Positions 597-51,479 of a stretch of 64,000 nucleotides of DNA are shown piece after piece. The stretch spans positions 160,001-224,000 of the forward strand of contig CAVPNL010000012.1 of the NCBI GenBank assembly GCA_963706575.1, read 5' to 3'. Positions within the stretch are counted from its first letter, which is position 1. Each line of letters opens with the position of its first letter. This DNA comes from an uncultured delta proteobacterium. GTDB lineage: Bacteria > Desulfobacterota > Desulfobacteria > Desulfobacterales > JAHEIW01. The position numbers and the translations under genes were made by a program. The notes beneath the pieces are model-generated. The model ran no database searches. It worked only from the letters and a program-made list of their open reading frames with translations, and was not told where the DNA came from.

Positions 597-1336
597 AGAG
601 CTGTCATTACTGGGTCTGGTTGGGTTACACCAATAACCATGGGGTGCGGAAGAAACCATGATTGTTTTGAAATGCGTGCGGGCAAATTGCCTGAAATCAC
701 GCGCAAAGCTGTCTTTGAAGAACCTTGCCCCATTTTGGTCGGCTGGATCGATATTCTCGTCTGGTGACTATCGGCGATTGCATTCGCACTTGAAGGACGC
801 GCGGCTACATCAGTGGACCCAAAACGTGCCAATCGGCATCATCGCTTCTACGCGTGAACGGTTGCCTGGAAACAGATATTAATATTTTAATACCGTGATG
901 ACTGATGGCGGGCGCATGGCAAGCCCTAATTTGTTTGCCTATACGCTGCCGAACAGTTTTTTAGGAGAAGCATCGATATTCGGTTTGGCCTGACCGGAAC
1001 AGCTTTGTTATCAGTGAGCCGTCTGCATCCGGACTTTGGTGCTTGCGGATGGCTTTAATCGGGATAGCAGACGGGCAATTCGAAAAGGTCGTTTGCGGCA
1101 TGTGTGATCTAGGTCATTTACCGCCTTTTACGAAAGCCAATAAAACGCCTTGCGGCGCATTGTTTTTTGTTATTGAAAAAACTCCCTGCCACATTCAATT
1201 GGTCTACGGGGATCTTTGCCTCGGCAGACACGGGGTTTTAATGTTCAACAATGAAGAAATAAAGAGTTTGCCCATATTGGCACAAAAATGTTTAACCGCT
1301 TTTGCGGCCAAAGATGATAAAACACCTGAAGTGTAA
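593..1336 (+). CDS. ketosynthase N-terminal / chain-length-factor-like protein, frameshifted
   Basis: GTG overlaps the upstream stop. AVITGSGWVTP and SPNLFAYTLPN are found across frames, and the ORF pieces 658-882 and 1043-1336 fit one gene. Confidence 0.65.
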
Positions 1337-1440
1337 AACTTAATTATCAATCACTTAATCTTAGCCATCCCAAAATAGTACAGCTTAAGGGAACGCTATC
1401 GCCGAAATTCAAAACGTCGACGAGCCCAAAGGACAGATTA

Positions 1441-2707
1441 ATGAAAATTAAATTAATTTTTCCAACCTGGTCCAAGTTGGAACATCAGACAGAGTTCCAT
1501 CTTCCCCCTCACGGACCGGTGGTATTCGCTGCCGAAGTGCCGGATGATGTCGAACTTGAATTTATCGACGCCAATTTGCAACCGATTAAATTTGACGATT
1601 CAGTCGACCTGGTTGCCCTCTCAGTATTGTTAACCTGCCAGCTGCCGCACGCATTTGAAATCGCAGACAATTATCGCAAAATGAACATACCGGTAATTTT
1701 CGGCGGGATAGCAACCTCGCTGCACGCCGAGGAAGTAAGTCAACATGCAGATAGTGTTTTCCTCGGTGAAGTGGAAGGCCGATTTATTTCTGTGATTGAG
1801 GATTTGAAAGCCGGGCAGATGAAAAGAAAATATGATTTTCTGAACGATCCTCCGGATATCCGTCTCGTCGGTCCGGCCAGGCGAGATATTCTCTGCCGTG
1901 AGTTATACAATTATCGGGGCGTTCAGATGTTTGATCTTATTCATGCATCGCGGGGTTGTAAGTTCGATTGTTTTCCCTGCTGTGTCGGATATCTGGGGGG
2001 TCGGAAATTTCGCCCCCGTCCGATCAAAAAGGTTATCGAAGAAATGGAATCGATTCCCAACAACCGGTTGTTCATCGTGGATAATTCTCTGGCGCAGGAT
2101 CGTCAATGGATAATGGCGCTTCTGAAAGCAATGATCCCGCTAAAAAAGAAATGGGTTTCTCATCCGGTAATATATGATGAAAAGGTCCTCGAACTGGCCG
2201 CCGAGGCAGGATGCTGGTATGTGTACCAGGCGATATTTGATACCTCAGACGTCATTCGCGACCGCATAAAAATGCTAAAAAGCCATGGTATCGGCATCGA
2301 AGGTACGATCATTCTCGGTACCGATGACCAAAATGAAGACGATATCAAGCGTCTGGTGGATTTTCTAATCGAAAACGAACTCGACATGGCTGAATTCACC
2401 ATACTGACCCCCTTCCCTCACACGCCGATTCGAGCCCAATTTGAAAAAGAGGGCCGCATCCTGAGTAATTCCTGGAGTGACTATACCTGTGACAAGGTTG
2501 TTTTTCAGCCCAAACATATGACGCCTCAAAAACTTCAGGAACTTTACCATTATGCCTGGCGCACATTTTATGCGGATAGCGGTAGAGCAGTTAAAAATGG
2601 CCGACCTTTTTTTGAAGGTGGTCAAAAAAGAAATGGAAGATGGAACTTATCGACGCTATAATCCTAGAAAACGCACAGGCTTTAACAAGAAGTTGTCAGT
2701 GGTATGA
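1441..2707 (+). CDS. B12-binding radical SAM protein (frameshift near 2584)
   Basis: SRGCKFDCFPC motif and N-terminal cobalamin domain. The alternative frame EQLKMADLFLKVVKKEMEDGTYRRY runs to TGA at 2707, overlapping the next ATG (ATGA). Confidence 0.85.
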
Positions 2708-4063
2708 GTAATTTTTTTCTACTTTCATCAAATGTGAATACCGATCCATATCCGGTCTATCCCCTGGGAATGGCAGTGGTGGCAGCGTCTCTTGATAACG
2801 CAGGTCATCAAGTATGGCAATATGACTACCTTGCCGCAGGCTGCTCAGATCATGGATTAAAGAAAGCACTGAAAGAAATTCGCTCCAGACTTTGTTGGCA
2901 TTTCACTTCGCAATATCGATAATGTCGATTCATTTTCAGCCGAGCAAGAGTGGTACCTGGCGAAAGTCAAAATGCTGGTTGAAATAATCCGGCAGGCAAC
3001 AGCCGTACCGATTATTGTGGGCGGACCCGGTTTTTCAATCTTACCGGAGGAAATTATAAATTACATTGACGCTGATTACGGCGTTGTGGGCGAAGGTGAG
3101 CGTACGCTCTGCGACCTCATTGCAGAATTAGAAGCGGGACACTTTGCACCGCGAATTATCGAAAGTAACAAGGATCTTCTCATCGGAGCGGAAATGGCAT
3201 CTCCGCGCTGGGATAAAAATCTGGTTAATTTTTATATTGAACGCAGCGGAATGGTTAATCTGCAGACCAAACGCGGCTGTCCCCATAATTGCAATTACTG
3301 CTCCTATCCGACATTGGAGGGGCGGCGCCTGCGGACAAAAGAACCTGAAAAGGTGGTAGAGGAAATTAAACAGGCACAGGAAATGTTCGGCATAGACACC
3401 ATCTTTTTTGCTGATTCGATTTTTAATGACAACTCCGACCACTACCTGATCGTTGCCGAAGAATTTCTGAAACAGGAGATAGATTTGCGCTGGTACGGTT
3501 TTTTCCGGCCCCAAGATATCCGTGCGAAAGAGTTGAACCTGCTAAAGCGTTCAGGGTTAAGCGCGATGGAGGTGGGTACAGATGCCGCATGCGATGCGAC
3601 GTTAGCCGGCCTTAACAAGAAGTTTACCTTTGCGGACGTCATCGAATTTAACAGAGCTTGCGTCAAAGAGGAGATTCCTACAGCCCATTTCATCATGTTC
3701 GGCGGTCCGGATGAAACAATCGCAACGGTCAAAGAAGGATTGAAAAATATACAAGGGCTTGAACGGTGTGTTGTTTTTGCGTTTGGTGGAATCCGGATCC
3801 ACCCCGGAACCCAGATACATGCCCGGGCCATACAAGAGGGGACTCTGAATCAAAAAGACTCTTTACTGAGACCTGTTTATTATTTTTCGCCAAATCTGGA
3901 TCAAGCAGTTATGAATGAGAACATCACATCCGCTTTTCATGGCCAACGCGATCGAATTTTCCCGCCTGCGGAGGGCCTGATCCGTATGGCCACCATGAAC
4001 CGCTTTGGTTACCGTGGGTTGCTGTGGGACAAGCTGGTATCTTTTGAAAAGTACCCAAAATAA
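2704..4063 (+). CDS. lipid-biosynthesis B12-binding radical SAM protein (frameshift near 2878)
   Basis: PYPVYPLGM N-terminus joins FAPDFVGISLRNIDNVDS after a 1-nt shift. KRGCPHNCNYC motif. Confidence 0.85.
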
Positions 4064-45855: not shown

Positions 45856-46277
45856 TCAATAACTTCATGTGTCGATCTTAACCAATTACCATTATTGATT
45901 TGTGTCGAAGGGATTCCTAATTAAACCTCTGATTACTCTCCAACATATCGGCGAAATTGACCGGCCTCCAGAAGTTGTGATATTTTCGCATATCTGTAAA
46001 ATTGAGATAGTTGGGTTTCTCTCAATGTATCGGTAGTTGGCTGATAATTGGTTTTTTGGTAAGGTATCACCACATGTCGGAACTCCCAATATTGATTGAA
46101 AAACCCCGTCGATTCGTTTATAAATTCTATTATACAATTTCTGATGCACCACTCCAGCTAACCGGAAGCTGTTCTCCTTTTCCTGAATCGAATCTTGCTG
46201 CTGATCTGATGCTACGCTTCACTGATTGATCTACATACTTAGTTCTTTAGTTTGAAACCTTAACGAAGGGGTTTCCT

Positions 46278-48171
46278 ATGGCAGATGAAGGTTTTAAGCG
46301 CAAGCTAACCGCAATTCTCAGCGCCGATGCAGTTGGGTACAGCCGTCTCATGGCAGAAGATGAGGCTGCCACTGTAAAAACTATCGCTATCTACCGTGAA
46401 ATCATGTCATCTCTGATCAAACAGCACAGGGGTCGAGTCGTTGATTCACCAGGGGATAATGTGCTGGCCGAGTTTTCCAGTGTGGTCGACGCCAGTGCAG
46501 TGTGCTGTGGCTGTGCAAAAGGAAATTCAGGCCCGAAACGCAGAGTTGGCCGAGAACCGTAGAATGGAGTTTCGCATTGGAATCAACCTTGGGGATGTCA
46601 TTGATGAAGAAGGTCGCCTCTACGGCGATGGAGTCAACATCTCGGCCCGGCTGGAGGCACTGGCAGACCCTGGGGGTATATGCGTTTCAAAGACGGTTTT
46701 TGATCAAATCGAGACCAAACTACCGCTGGGCTATGAATATTTAGGAGAACAGTCAGTTAAAAATATACCCAAGCCGGTTGGTGCTTATCGGGTCTTGATG
46801 AAGCCTGATGATGCTGGCAAAGTGATTGGTGAAAAAAAATTTTTAGGTCGGTATTCACGCAGGACAGCGATGGCCACCATTATAATTCTGATCGTAGTAG
46901 CAGTAGGTTTAGTTAGCTGGAATATTTATCTTCAGCAATCTAAACGAGTAGAGCCAGCATCTTTAGATAGAATGGCCTATCCATTGCCAGATAAACCATC
47001 GATCGCAGTATTGCCATTTGTTAACATGAGCGACGACCCTGAGCAGGCGTATTTCAGTGACGGGATCACGGAGGATATCATCACGACCCTGTCCAAAGTC
47101 CCCAAGCTGTTCATCATCGCACGGAACTCGACATTTACATACAAGAATAGATCGGTCAAGGTTCAGCAGGTGGCAGAGGAACTGGGTGTGCGGTACGTGC
47201 TTGAAGGCAGCGTAAGGAAGGCGGGAGAAAAGATCCGTATTACGGCCCAGCTGATCGACGCCGTTAATGGCCATCACCTCTGGGCGGAACGATTTGACAG
47301 GGATCTGAAAGACATCTTCGCCCTTCAGGACGAGATCGCCATGAAGGTCCTAACCGCGCTGGAAGTTAAGTTGGTCGGGGGACATACTTCCCTTTTAATC
47401 TCAAGAGGGACCGATAACTTGGAGGCGTACCTGACTGTCTTACAGGGTCGCGAGTTTCATGAGCGCTCGAACAGGGAAAACAATTTCATGGCTCGACAAA
47501 AATTCGAGGAAGCTCTGGCCTTGGATCCCAACTATGCCGCCGCCTTCAACCTGCTTGCCCGAACCCACTTCATGGACGTCTGGCTCGGATCCAGTAAATC
47601 CCCCAAGGCGTCGCTCATAACGGCCATTGATCTAACACAGAAAGCTATTGTCTTGGACGATTCACTTGCGGATTCGCACGCACTCCTCGGCTACCTCTAT
47701 ACCCTGACGCGGCAGCACGACAAGGCGATTGCGCAGGGGGAGCGGGCCGTGGAGCTCGATCCCAACTCCAGTTTAGCTTATCTTTGGCTGGGAACCAGCC
47801 TCAATTATATTGGAAGAACTGAGGAGGCCGTGGCCATGATTGAAAAGGCGATCCGCCATAACCCAATGCCCCCCAGTTCGTGGTACGTTTTCTTAGGCTC
47901 GGCCCTGTCAAACGCAGGGCGGTATGACGAGGCGGTAACCGCGTCCCGGAAGGCCGTAGAACTGTCACCAAACAACATTTTCGCACAACTCGCACTGGTG
48001 TTGTCTTGCAATCTGGGCAGCCGCGATGAGGAGGCCCGTTCCGCAGCGGCCGAGGTCCTCCGGATACAGCCGAATTTCTCAGTAGATAATTTCGCTAAGA
48101 GAATGCCCTATAAAGACCCGGCGGACATGCAACGGATAGTGAAAGCGTGGCGCAAGGCGGGGCTGAAGTGA
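46278..48171 (+). CDS. class III adenylate/guanylate cyclase-TolB-like-TPR protein (frameshift near 46492)
   Basis: RKLTAILSADAVGYS, GDNVLAEF, FRIGINLGDV, YGDGVN..ARLE, PSIAVLPF, then TPR repeats. Confidence 0.9.
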
Positions 48172-48365
48172 GGGAAAGCAAGGCACTACATGTTATGGCT
48201 TGGCTTATTTTCTTTAGATTGCATATATCATTAAAAATCACAGCCGTTTTGGGATTGTTAAAAACTGTGATTTCTCCAACCTGTACGACATAAAATGATA
48301 ATTGACTAAACAGTCGATCGAGGTCATTATCTACCTGTTTTTTCTGCAAAAAGCGAAAGGAGGTA

Positions 48366-49448
48366 GTGATGAACCTCGAGCATGTGTCTGCAGGAAAAAG
48401 CACATACAGCCCCACAGCGATCCAGCCCAAAGCGATTCAACTTTCAATTTTTCCCAAAATATCTCTTCGCCCCGCCTATCATGTATCTAATGAACAGATC
48501 GAGCGCACCCTGCGGCGAATATCCGCTGAAGGGTTGTGTGGCAGCGATATGGTGCGCGATTACCTTTGCCGGCAGCTACGGCACAACTGCCGGCCCAGCA
48601 CCATTCGCAGCAGCGGAACCACTATCGTGCTATTTTTAGAGTTTTTTAAGCAAAGCGGCGGTCAGCAGTTGGCGGCAGCAGGTCCAGAGCATATCAGCGC
48701 TTTTGTTGAACATGAGCAAGATCGTGGTATGGCGCCAAACTCGGTGGATGGACGGCTAAAGGGATTGTATGCGTTTTTAAATTTTTTAGTTGAGCACGAG
48801 GTTATCAGCGCGGATGTGATCAAGCGTAAGCTTCGCATCAGGGTGCCCCAGGCCCTGCCGCGGGCCATTGATCCGGAGGATATTAAGCAGCTGTTGGCGG
48901 CAATAGAAAAGCCTCGGGATCGGGCGCTGATACTAACGCTTCTTCGCACCGGCATGCGTATCGGCGAGCTTTTAAGCACCAGGGTTAAGGATATCAATCT
49001 GCGCGAGCAACTGGTTCAGATCTTTGAAGCACATAAAAATCGGGTGGGCCGGGTGGTCTATCTTAGCGCTGATGCGGTGGGCACCTTGGAAAAATGGTTA
49101 AAGACAAGAAAATATCAGAGCAAATTTATCTTTTATGGCTATGATGTTGGACCGCTTTGCTACCAAGCGGCCCGTGCGATGTTCAAACGCTATATAGACA
49201 AAACCGGTCTGGCCCACAAGGGCTACACGCTTCACTGCCTGCGTCACACATACGCCAGTGAGCTGTTAAATGCCGGTATGCCGCTGCAATGTCTGCAGGA
49301 GCTTTTGGGTCACAAAAGCATTGAGATGACGCGCCGATATGCGCGGCTAACCGACAACACGCGTCGCAAGGCTTATTACCAGGCGATGACCATCATTGAA
49401 GCAGGAGAGATCAATGGGCATTACCGACTCGATTATCAACTACCGTAG
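48366..49448 (+). CDS. tyrosine recombinase A
   Basis: TGMRIGE, HKNR, HCLRH, LGH and TRRY catalytic motifs. RBS AAGGAGG. Confidence 0.95.
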   Translation: MMNLEHVSAGKSTYSPTAIQPKAIQLSIFPKISLRPAYHVSNEQIERTLRRISAEGLCGSDMVRDYLCRQLRHNCRPSTIRSSGTTIVLFLEFFKQSGGQQLAAAGPEHISAFVEHEQDRGMAPNSVDGRLKGLYAFLNFLVEHEVISADVIKRKLRIRVPQALPRAIDPEDIKQLLAAIEKPRDRALILTLLRTGMRIGELLSTRVKDINLREQLVQIFEAHKNRVGRVVYLSADAVGTLEKWLKTRKYQSKFIFYGYDVGPLCYQAARAMFKRYIDKTGLAHKGYTLHCLRHTYASELLNAGMPLQCLQELLGHKSIEMTRRYARLTDNTRRKAYYQAMTIIEAGEINGHYRLDYQLP

Positions 49449-50334
49449 ATCGTTAAAAAGGCGCAACTTCTCTAAATACACCATCAGAAATTACATGAGC
49501 ACACTGAAGCAGTTTGTCATTTGGCTGGATGTGCCCATCGATAAGGTAACCCACCAAAAGCTGGTGGGCTTTATCGATGATCTGTTGGCCAAGCGCCTGA
49601 AACCCAAGACCATCAACTGCTACCTGGACAGCATCCGCGGCTTCTATGACTACCTGATCTGTGAGGAGCAACTTAAGATGCAAAATCCGGTGAAACTCGG
49701 AGATACACTGCGCATGTCCAAGCCACTGCCGCGCTTTTTGCGAGATGAGCAGGTGCGGACGCTTTTTGCACAGATCGATGATCCAAGGGATTTGGCCATC
49801 TTCAAGCTGATGCTGCGCTGCGGCCTTAGGGTGCAAGAGGTGGCCAAGTTGACTCTTGCCTCTGTGGATTTAAAACGCGCCCAGGTGTTTGTCTACCATG
49901 GCAAGGGCGCCAAAGAACGGATGGTTTATTTAAGCAAAGATGCCTATCAGGCGCTTTTGGCCTATCTGAAGGTCAGGCCTTTCTCCCGGGCCAAAAGGCT
50001 TTTTTTGGTCAACAAGGGCCGCTTTAGAGGCCAACCGCTCAACGTTCGCGGCATCCAGCACCGTATCAAATACTACTCGAAAAAGGCGGGCTTTAAGGTC
50101 AGCTGCCACCAGCTGCGCCACACCATGGCCACCCAGATGCTCAATGCCGATGCGGATTTAGTGACCATCCAGGACCTTTTGGGCCACGCCTACATCACAA
50201 CAACCGAGCGGTATTGCCGTGTGTCGAACCAGAAAGTGCGAAGGGATTACTACCGGGCAATGGATAAAGTAATCGAGCGCCACAGCCCGGTCGGAAACAA
50301 AAGACTTGACAAAGAAGAAATTTTGATTAATTAA
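49414..50334 (+). CDS. tyrosine recombinase B
   Basis: CGLRVQE, GKGAKER, HQLRH, LGH and TERY motifs. Overlaps gene A by 35 bp. Confidence 0.95.
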   Translation: MGITDSIINYRRSLKRRNFSKYTIRNYMSTLKQFVIWLDVPIDKVTHQKLVGFIDDLLAKRLKPKTINCYLDSIRGFYDYLICEEQLKMQNPVKLGDTLRMSKPLPRFLRDEQVRTLFAQIDDPRDLAIFKLMLRCGLRVQEVAKLTLASVDLKRAQVFVYHGKGAKERMVYLSKDAYQALLAYLKVRPFSRAKRLFLVNKGRFRGQPLNVRGIQHRIKYYSKKAGFKVSCHQLRHTMATQMLNADADLVTIQDLLGHAYITTTERYCRVSNQKVRRDYYRAMDKVIERHSPVGNKRLDKEEILIN

Positions 50335-50459
50335 AATGGAAGCTAACTAATTAATATTAATAGAAATAACAGGGTTTATGTCGTACAGCTCCAACATATC
50401 GGCACTTTTGAACCCCTCGCAAAAGTTGTGATACTCGTTTTATATCTGCAATCATAAGG

Positions 50460-50547
50460 GCCAAGACAGTTCCGACCATTCTAATCTAATCGAACTATTT
50501 TTCCTCTACCAACCTCCGTCCTTGAAAGCTACACTTAGCTCTGATAT
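50460..50547 (+). repeat. about 88-bp promoter-containing direct repeat, copy A
   Basis: Aligns to 51492-51580; contains TTGAAA-N17-TATCAA. Confidence 0.8.
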
Positions 50548-50591: not shown

Positions 50592-51479
50592 ATGCCACTT
50601 TACAAAATCCTTCCAGACGGACAAACACTTGAAATTGTTAAGAGAAAAGAATTCTCATATGAAAAAGACCTTCATATTCTTATAGACAGGAATCTCCTCA
50701 GTTTATTGGGAATAAGGTTAATTGCGAGTGAGTACCCAATTCCAAATGGAAGAATCGACACTCTTGGACTTGATGAAGATGATATTCCTGTAATAATAGA
50801 ATATAAAAAAAAGAAGGATTTAAGCGCAATCGTTCAAGGCTTATTTTACCTTGATTGGATTATGCAGAACAAAAAGCCCTTTGGGTCGATAGTTAAAGAT
50901 AAGCTAGGCAAAAGCGTGGATGTCAACTGGTCAAAGCAGCCTCGCCTTCTCATCATTGCACAAGATTTCGATGTCAAAGAATTAACGGCTATTAATCAAA
51001 TGGGTCCAAGAATTGAGTTGGTCAAATATTCATTCTACGAAGGATTATTCAATATTGACGGTGTGAATATCGTTGAGGCCAAATCACCACCCAAAAAAGA
51101 TGAGGGCGAAAAGCCTTCTGAAGATTATACGGTTGAGCAATTGGTTAAGAAAGCAACCCCAGAAATTCAATCCCTATATATGGAATTGCGAGAGAAAATA
51201 ACCGCTATTTCTGAATCTGTGTGGGAGAAAGTTCATTCATATTATTGCGATTTCCGCACTACCTCAACTTTTACCACTGTAAATGTGCAAAAGACTCAAC
51301 TTAAGATCTTTTTAAAGATGGGTGAACGCGAGGTTGATGATCCTAAAGGTCTTACTAAACCAGTCCCTTCAAGTTGGGGCTATGGTCACTTAAATACTCA
51401 GTTCCTTATTTCAAAAACTGATGAAATTGATGACGCAATGCATTTGATAATGCAGGCTTATGATTATGTTTCAGGATAA
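50592..51479 (+). CDS. PD-(D/E)XK (NucS-like) endonuclease domain plus DUF5655-like domain
   Basis: EKDL, GRIDTLGLD...VIIEYKK; C-terminal WGYG...I...DEIDDAM.LI.QAY. Confidence 0.8.
   Translation: MPLYKILPDGQTLEIVKRKEFSYEKDLHILIDRNLLSLLGIRLIASEYPIPNGRIDTLGLDEDDIPVIIEYKKKKDLSAIVQGLFYLDWIMQNKKPFGSIVKDKLGKSVDVNWSKQPRLLIIAQDFDVKELTAINQMGPRIELVKYSFYEGLFNIDGVNIVEAKSPPKKDEGEKPSEDYTVEQLVKKATPEIQSLYMELREKITAISESVWEKVHSYYCDFRTTSTFTTVNVQKTQLKIFLKMGEREVDDPKGLTKPVPSSWGYGHLNTQFLISKTDEIDDAMHLIMQAYDYVSG

Follow-up and report, generated by a model that had tools for sequence, protein, structure and literature searches.

An insertion sequence (IS) is, in operational terms, an element under about 2.5 kb that carries mobility genes only, has inverted ends and a flanking repeat, and is present in several copies; to our knowledge, tyrosine recombinases are not among the enzyme classes of the recognised IS families, and elements of the class considered here are missing from the standard IS lists. 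The element in question, which has every one of these operational features, spans positions 48281-50388 (2,108 bp) of the window, that is, the whole stretch of 64,000 nucleotides that was analysed (G000:C12:160001-224000, i.e., contig C12 of G000, the genome under study, a metagenome assembly of 5.67 Mb). It contains two overlapping genes for Xer-like tyrosine recombinases, here termed A and B. It is likely that this is an intact mobile element of insertion-sequence size, probably active in recent times, with the two recombinases as its only genes; the family to which it belongs is large and apparently undescribed, and consists of minimal tyrosine-recombinase transposable elements.

Several known systems resemble the element in part. 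Tn554 carries a core of 6-7 bp from site to site and needs TnpC, and it has resistance genes, no inverted ends and no flanking repeat; the core genes of strand-biased circularizing integrative elements and of GInts are three recombinases plus one other. In XerC/XerD-dif and Cre-loxP, two inverted arms surround an overlap of 6-8 bp, and in Xer two paralogous recombinases cooperate; the element shares with these systems the arm-overlap-arm geometry and the Xer-like proteins, whereas the arms of dif are unlike, one for each protein, and symmetry is found here in the element site as well as in the target. We know of no studied system in which two paralogous enzymes are combined with two symmetric sites, one of the element and one of the target. 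IS1397 and ISKpn1 are insertion sequences that target repetitive extragenic palindromes by means of DDE transposases, with target duplications produced by staggered cuts; the likeness lies in a small element that inserts in short intergenic palindromic repeats and avoids genes.

The nearest precedent for the target logic is TnPZ of Helicobacter pylori, for which the Xer-related XerT was proposed as transposase and whose 7-bp direct repeats, AAGAATG, have a single counterpart at each empty site (Kersulyte et al. 2009, PMC2731543); its insertion sites are numerous, and the sequences of its ends have co-adapted to the type of recombinase. As presented there, TnPZ has in common with our element a Xer-related recombinase and a flanking 7-bp direct repeat, but it has one recombinase and is large and conjugative, with type IV secretion and other genes, whereas the element is 2.1 kb long, has two recombinases and no cargo, and its 7-bp word varies between lineages. 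Of the TnPZ/XerT-type characters, the 7-bp repeat is thus present, while the single recombinase with cargo is not. RIT elements, as they were described, comprise three distinct recombinases (A, B, and C), occur mainly in alpha- and beta-proteobacteria, and were at that time of undemonstrated mobility (Van Houdt et al. 2012, PMC3414803). They are similar in having adjacent tyrosine recombinase genes with short overlaps, no other gene and a presumed mobility, and they differ from the element, which has two genes, clear repeats and multiple insertions; assignment to RIT was rejected, since two genes in 2,108 bp leave no space for a third and the units of relatives measure 2.1-2.5 kb. In Tn554 and its relatives, transposition needs both of two tyrosine recombinases. 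In actinobacterial Tn554-like pairs the N terminus of one protein is extended by more than 400 aa (PMC3414803), whereas A has only ~70 extra residues. The Tn554 family was likewise set aside, as there is no third open reading frame (ORF), while inverted ends that match perfectly over 14 bp are present together with a 7-bp repeat; the original prediction, which had separated the locus from both RIT and Tn554 on its number of genes, was right in this respect. Bipartite-module (BIM) elements were rejected too, since they are described as one recombinase with an unrelated protein (PMC3414803). In strand-biased circularizing integrative elements and GInts several tyrosine recombinases drive integration (PMC10214605, PMC5385486); they have four core genes plus cargo and are found in Gammaproteobacteria, which distinguishes them from our element. 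Full-text literature searches, with ISfinder and TnCentral outside their scope, found no published description of a two-recombinase element of insertion-sequence size, in agreement with the earlier statement that no characterised two-gene form was recognised.

The features of the element and its immediate borders are as follows.

48274-48280, plus strand: left 7-bp word, CTCCAAC, the putative strand-exchange (overlap) region
48281-48294, plus strand: left terminal inverted repeat, CTGTACGACATAAA, of an end type kept in relatives
48302-48330, plus strand: promoter-like site, TTGACT - 17 nt - CATTAT, just inside the left end
48318-48379, plus strand: predicted leader hairpin, in which the -10 region pairs with GGAGG (48359-48363) and the ATG (48369) of gene A
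48334-48346, plus strand: inner inverted repeat, left copy, CCTGTTTTTTCTG, nearly invariant in a family alignment of 24 sequences
48369-49448, plus strand: recombinase A, 359 aa from ATG, Xer-like, with ~70 extra N-terminal residues
49414-50334, plus strand: recombinase B, 306 aa, Xer-like
50361-50373, minus strand: inner inverted repeat, right copy, matching the left copy at 11/13 positions and abutting the terminal repeat
50375-50388, minus strand: right terminal inverted repeat, the exact reverse complement of CTGTACGACATAAA
50389-50395, plus strand: right 7-bp word, CTCCAAC

The element is bounded by perfect 14-bp inverted ends with CTCCAAC on each side, and its only long ORFs are the two same-strand genes; sequence and ORF list bear out the coordinates, the ends, the repeats, the length of 2,108 bp and the lack of any other gene as they had been given in the original prediction. 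The exact 14-mer occurs four times in the genome, each time as an end of one of the two copies of the element, and the terminal repeats are the sole 100%-complementary inverted pair of 14 nt among the pairs listed for the region. The inner inverted repeat, CCTGTTTTTTCT, lies 39 bp inward of the left end and directly adjoins the right end; it was this inner pair that the first end-finding script chose in about ten relatives, and it may represent an accessory or second protein-binding site.

Both proteins belong to the tyrosine recombinase superfamily, as indicated by the PF00589 domain (Pfam; E 2.7e-39 for A and 2.5e-36 for B) and by the R-K-H-R-H-Y residues, which are R197, K223, H289, R292, H315 and Y324 in A, and R139, K164, H232, R235, H258 and Y267 in B. 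That both proteins keep these residues had been stated before; when 14 relatives of A and 21 of B are aligned, the columns show no variation, and they line up with the corresponding motifs of Pyrococcus XerA (4a8e); the latter is among the closest solved structures, together with E. coli XerD (1a0p) and Thermoplasma XerA (5hxy). The start of A at the ATG agrees with an identical database protein (P0001). A and B overlap by 35 nt in different frames and are only ~30% identical to each other; a SAM-like N-terminal domain is clear in B, while in A it is weak and located behind the ~70 extra residues. The predicted A-B complex scored 0.28 against a mark of 0.32, in a prediction made without control runs, and the score does not weigh on binding in either direction. 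Among curated families, archaeal XerA, XerC and XerD come nearest, all matched well under their cut-offs: A scores 153.7 for XerC and 137.4 for XerD, and B 202.8 and 177.2, the NCBIfam equivalog cut-offs being 335 and 330, and the identification as an XerC/XerD resolvase was rejected. The integron integrase IntI was also discarded, with scores of 75.3 (A) and 111.5 (B) against the TIGR02249 cut-off of 265 and each match split in two stretches; in the whole genome no integron integrase above this cut-off was found.

A second copy of the element is located at G000:C1:10-2131, on the opposite strand and at the end of a contig, with CTCCAAC on both sides; its left flank differs and is unique sequence. 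The two copies are 99.6% identical, with 8 differing positions that all fall within 50067-50374. Such a copy could be an assembly artefact, or the element a dead relic, with nothing mobile in the organism today: the genome is a metagenome assembly, 91.8% complete and with 6.4% contamination, the C1 copy stands at a contig end, and decayed relatives are present at C18:89256-89556 and C12:228086-228343, the decayed pieces including fragments of the C-terminal part of recombinase B along with a worn right end. However, neither ORF is interrupted, no catalytic residue is missing, ends and repeats are free of mismatches, and the near identity of the copies, joined to the unique left flank on C1, points the other way; this explanation is unlikely. 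Possibly related sequences are found also elsewhere in the genome: G000:C6:34722 and G000:C9:10068 share identical stretches, AAAAACTGTGCTAC-GAATCGC followed by CTGTATGAAATAAAAGTG, the latter resembling an end of this element family, and these may be ends of another related element.

Outside this genome, relatives of A number in the thousands, the best 120 being 58-100% identical. About 100 of these 120, by hand count of the table, lie on contigs under 5 kb, as expected since assemblies tend to break at a repeat. When one genome per species was scanned, 403 relatives were confirmed, the best 80 of which were retained (L-numbers below denote individual loci retrieved); these 80 come mostly from metagenome-assembled genomes of Desulfobacterota, with two cultured strains. 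Past A, 77 of these loci have a homologue of B, 45-84% identical, and the remaining three stop at the contig edge just past A; the two genes overlap by 3-85 nt in 20 of the 21 loci inspected, the frame of A having failed to reconstruct in L077. No relative of A was found on PLSDB plasmids at E <= 1e-30. Wherever both ends could be located, the unit size is 2.1-2.5 kb. This family-wide architecture, together with the second copy, upholds the idea of a minimal mobile element formed by two overlapping recombinase genes.

The ends of relatives were located with a motif-anchored script, to which ends of the TACGACAT type and those of L086 were added by hand. They share one type, in which three bases are followed by TACGTAAYAAA or TACGACATAAA. 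Among the 44 insertions with both ends readable, the two copies of this genome included, 31 have a perfect 7-bp repeat and 3 match at 6/7, so that the conservation of inverted ends and 7-bp repeats that was to be expected for homologous pairs is largely seen; the other 10 match at fewer positions, and some of the 44 rows are non-independent (L043 and L044, for instance, come from one genome and have nearly identical flanks). As a control, left and right ends were paired across different loci, and gave 9 perfect repeats in 271 pairings, most of which we think to be pairings of copies of related elements. CTCCAAC flanks both copies described here; it flanks also L143 (at the left junction only; identity of A 84% within residues 1-296), L144 (A 60%) and L035 (79%), where L143 and L144 are copies in two sister genomes. 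Other lineages keep words of their own, CTTGCCA, GCTGTCA, CTGCTAT, CTGCAAT, TCTCAAT, ATCGTAA or TCAGGAA; the 7-bp word characterises the lineage and not the locus.

The original prediction held that the target shares only the 7-mer with the element, and this needs to be corrected: in the 34 insertions with good repeats, the 7-mer lies between palindromic arms of the form GATWN-7-NWATC, and many individual target sites are visibly palindromic. The counts, given over 32 since two sites had no flank, are as follows.

Left arm of the target logo: position -5, G 17/32; -4, A 16/32; -3, T 23/32; -2, A or T 29/32
Right arm of the target logo: position +2, A or T 30/32; +3, A 23/32; +4, T 23/32; +5, C 17/32

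CTCCAAC occurs 396 times in the genome and is followed by NWATC in only 24 cases, 18 of which fall within hits of the host repeat described below; every insertion of the CTCCAAC lineage uses NWATC-type sites.

From these features we infer the following course of events. The element would excise as a circle, whose joined ends would form a symmetric site composed of a 14-bp arm, CTCCAAC, and a 14-bp arm; the recombinases would then pair this site with a chromosomal one in which the same 7-bp word stands between weaker palindromic arms (GATWN ... NWATC). Lambda, Cre and Xer recombinases exchange strands at the edges of the overlap; here, strand exchange at both edges of the 7 bp would leave the word on each side of the inserted element. 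The word would thus travel with the element and set which sites a lineage can use. In a simple model, one protein may act on both arms of the element or target site, and the other protein on both arms of the other; this fits the finding that element site and target are both symmetric, that their arms differ from each other, and that there are two enzymes, and it comes close to the original prediction of a heteromeric duo in which one subunit may read the element ends and the other the target. Among self-contained mobile elements run by tyrosine recombinases, this one would be the smallest if the mechanism is true. The choice of target apparently rests largely on the 7-bp word carried by the element and on loose palindromic arms, which makes it testable how far the overlap sequence alone directs a tyrosine recombinase, and suggests a compact, retargetable integrase pair. 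The family is moreover abundant, with its 403 confirmed relatives mostly in sediment bacteria of the sulfate-reducer type.

Some observations weigh against a mobile element of this kind. The 8 differences between the two copies are clustered in the last 330 bp and could reflect a mix of strains in the metagenome assembly. Ten of the 44 insertions lack a good repeat, and in one lineage (L092, L094, L098, L099, L112) the right word is near-constant (AGACTGT or AGACTGA) while the left one is variable, with a match of 3-5/7; full identity over the 7 bp is therefore not always required, and a constant right word with a variable left one is the pattern predicted by an element-borne overlap carried into a partly mismatched target. 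The circle junction, whose search had been proposed with the original prediction, was not recovered: the end-N7-end pattern, which covers the exact ends of this sub-lineage only, gave 21 matches in metagenome contigs, none of them with the rest of the ends or similarity to the element; no circle junction or terminal overlap was present in 85 related loci; and in the contigs of four sequencing runs neither a joint spanning the element nor one connecting its two ends was seen. These contigs break off at 48280 and near 50400; two of those from run X3 track the left flank to 48280 (one listed piece, 188 bp, with 18 differences) and then continue in unrelated sequence, which is neither the element nor the present right flank. 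No empty site of the locus was found, the left-flank gene being undetected in 21 other genomes of the genus.

The flanking 7-bp words might also be true target-site duplications, generated by staggered cuts at a strongly preferred word and not by an overlap that the element brings along. Flanking direct repeats are the classic mark of transposition, and no junction sequence was found that shows a single copy of the word in a circle. On the other hand, the word is constant in a lineage across different flanks and at 60-79% protein identity, and the lineage with a constant right and a varying left word suggests carry-over, not duplication; besides, tyrosine recombinases are not known to duplicate their targets. 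An origin of the repeats by duplication is accordingly very improbable, and an overlap carried by the element is preferred.

Both copies in this genome and the copies in two sister genomes are inserted in the same host repeat family. The repeat features of the window and the distribution of the repeat arrays are the following.

45924-46060, plus strand: unoccupied copy of the host repeat, with CTCCAAC at 45938-45944
48234-48273, plus strand: host repeat left of the insertion, with the inverted pair AAATCACAG ... CTGTGATTT
48260-48273, plus strand: left arm of the target, AAAAACTGTGATTT, to be compared with AAAAnCTGyGATAy before the 7-mer in unoccupied copies; an arm of this type also borders the copies in two sister genomes
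50389-50460, plus strand: host repeat right of the insertion, with right arm ATATCGGCACTTTT, then a second arm-7-arm site, TGTGATAC-TCGTTTT-ATATCTGC
Host repeat arrays in the genome: C4:266-309k, C4:350-362k, C4:542-545k, C1:4-11k, C1:176-184k, C8:357-360k, C12:2-8k

The host repeat measures 70-130 bp and is a row of two or three arm-7-arm sites, the first of which is occupied by the element. Unit 1 reads AAAAnCTGyGATAy - CTCCAAC - ATATCrGCAnTTTT and, after a short spacer, unit 2 reads TGTGATAy - 7 nt - ATATCACA; one subfamily has a third unit around TCTCAAT, which is the repeat word of another element lineage (L080, L081, L148), found there in similar flanks. The joined ends of the element would share the 14-7-14 geometry of these units. 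Searched with a profile built from 15 copies, the genome gave 33 hits at E < 1e-3, a number that rises to 63 at E <= 1, and the repeat is genus-specific, being present in 16/18 sister genomes and in 1/12 genomes from other families of the order. The site at 45937, previously proposed as a target for integration assays, belongs to a copy of this repeat that has no insertion, and between its GAT and the 7-mer there are 2 bp more than in sites where the element is inserted. Where checked, the copies lie roughly 10-110 bp past the stop codon of a same-strand gene, and the matching sites of the genus, lying in these short rows of arm-7-arm units, would lead to insertion between genes. The identity of the target repeat, the logo of the target arms and the link between repeat units and lineage words are newly described here, as are the promoter-like motif and the leader hairpin discussed below. 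At C4:350450 a right-end-like sequence abuts CTCCAAC inside a copy of the host repeat.

A setting of this kind leads to consider whether the two genes form a resident site-specific recombination module, i.e., a paralogous XerC/XerD-like resolvase or invertase pair that acts on the host repeats, the ends and 7-mers being part of the repeat landscape. The best family matches are Xer-type, though all below cut-off, the unit sits inside a repeat of arm-7-arm sites, and neither circle nor empty site was seen in the data examined. Yet the second copy has a different left flank, the 44 insertions have flanks of their own and lineage-specific words, relatives of the element are patchy in the genus (only 4/21 other genomes), the element ends are unrelated in sequence to the arms of the host repeat, and two further Xer-like genes are already present on contig C3. 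A resident module is hence quite improbable, and a mobile element that uses the host repeat as its target remains the favoured explanation.

The co-oriented arrays of the host repeat, located on contigs C4, C1, C8 and C12, have mixed accessory enzymes and small proteins encoded between the copies, and resemble a cassette array, but one without integron integrase or strong single-strand hairpin. An attC site is a single-strand hairpin with paired R''/R' and L''/L' boxes; the host repeat was rejected as an attC site or classic hairpin repeat, since in 7 of 8 copies single-stranded folding was no better than in shuffles (z -0.73 to +0.95; the eighth had z -4.1) and no IntI is present. One may nevertheless speculate that the repeats are exchange sites of a double-stranded, dif-like gene-cassette system, on which the recombinase pair acts also in trans and whose words CTCCAAC, TCGTTTT and TCTCAAT are served by different element lineages; if so, an integron-like array would have the mobile element for its "integrase". 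We regard this as unlikely. When cassette neighbours were compared between genomes, one hydrolase gene (89% identical) stood next to other genes in a second genome; its breakpoints could not be linked to repeat sites. Some repeat copies are similar for several hundred bases past the core, in part through duplicated neighbouring small genes: C4:306457 and C1:177264 have, ~280-470 nt past the start of the repeat, paralogous ORFs of ~60 aa with two CxxC pairs (zinc-ribbon type), to which their similarity over more than 400 bp is due.

The control region of gene A lies between the left end and its start codon. The promoter-like site was matched once against 2.8 expected in shuffles, and is weak by itself; its TTGACT is identical in 9/9 close relatives aligned, and in more distant lineages this position is taken by TTGACn or a TGGTATAAT-type motif. 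For the leader hairpin, the consensus fold of the 9 close relatives has 20 predicted pairs, 4 of them changed on both sides, and that of 24 family sequences has 14 pairs, 6 of them changed on both sides, with one pair being A-U in 9 and G-C in 8; the predicted hairpin is thus supported by covariation. IS10 provides the model for its possible role. In transcripts that read through from outside, both arms of the hairpin would be present, and the ribosome site and start codon of gene A would be hidden, whereas the element's own transcripts would start within the left arm, with the beginning of gene A left open. Such a hairpin may guard the expression of gene A against read-in transcription, in keeping with the location of the element, which follows a host gene of the same orientation at a distance of ~100 bp. 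No Rfam family match was found inside or beside the element.

Other features were noted in the vicinity of the host repeats. In L137 (G000:C4:300001-312000), a group II intron lies at ~1232-3060 on the minus strand, with Rfam domains 1-4 and 5-6 and an ORF in which domains of a reverse transcriptase and a maturase are recognised; a host repeat copy adjoins the 3' end of the intron, and its 5' end follows a terminator-like hairpin, ~27 nt past a CTCCAAG word. Three c-di-GMP-I-GGC riboswitch aptamers above the Rfam gathering threshold sit in or beside the repeat arrays on contig C4, all on the minus strand (L136:1041-1115, L137:11823-11897 and L138:6680-6754). A separate dispersed repeat of ~165-310 bp, 74-93% identical and unrelated to the element or to the arm-7-arm repeat, is represented by L149 (G018:C178) 3256-3569 and has more than 20 matches on G000 contigs C1, C4, C5, C6, C9, C12-C16 and C25.

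In the window itself, the gene upstream of the insertion (46250-48171) codes for an adenylate-cyclase/TPR protein, has no counterpart in the 21 other genomes of the genus, and is seemingly broken near its start, as the N-terminal part of the cyclase (~46251-46559) is in another frame than the ORF 46441-48171; a frameshift or an error of assembly would account for the break. Directly downstream of the insertion, the product of the gene at 50592-51479 has a NucS-like nuclease domain and DUF5655.

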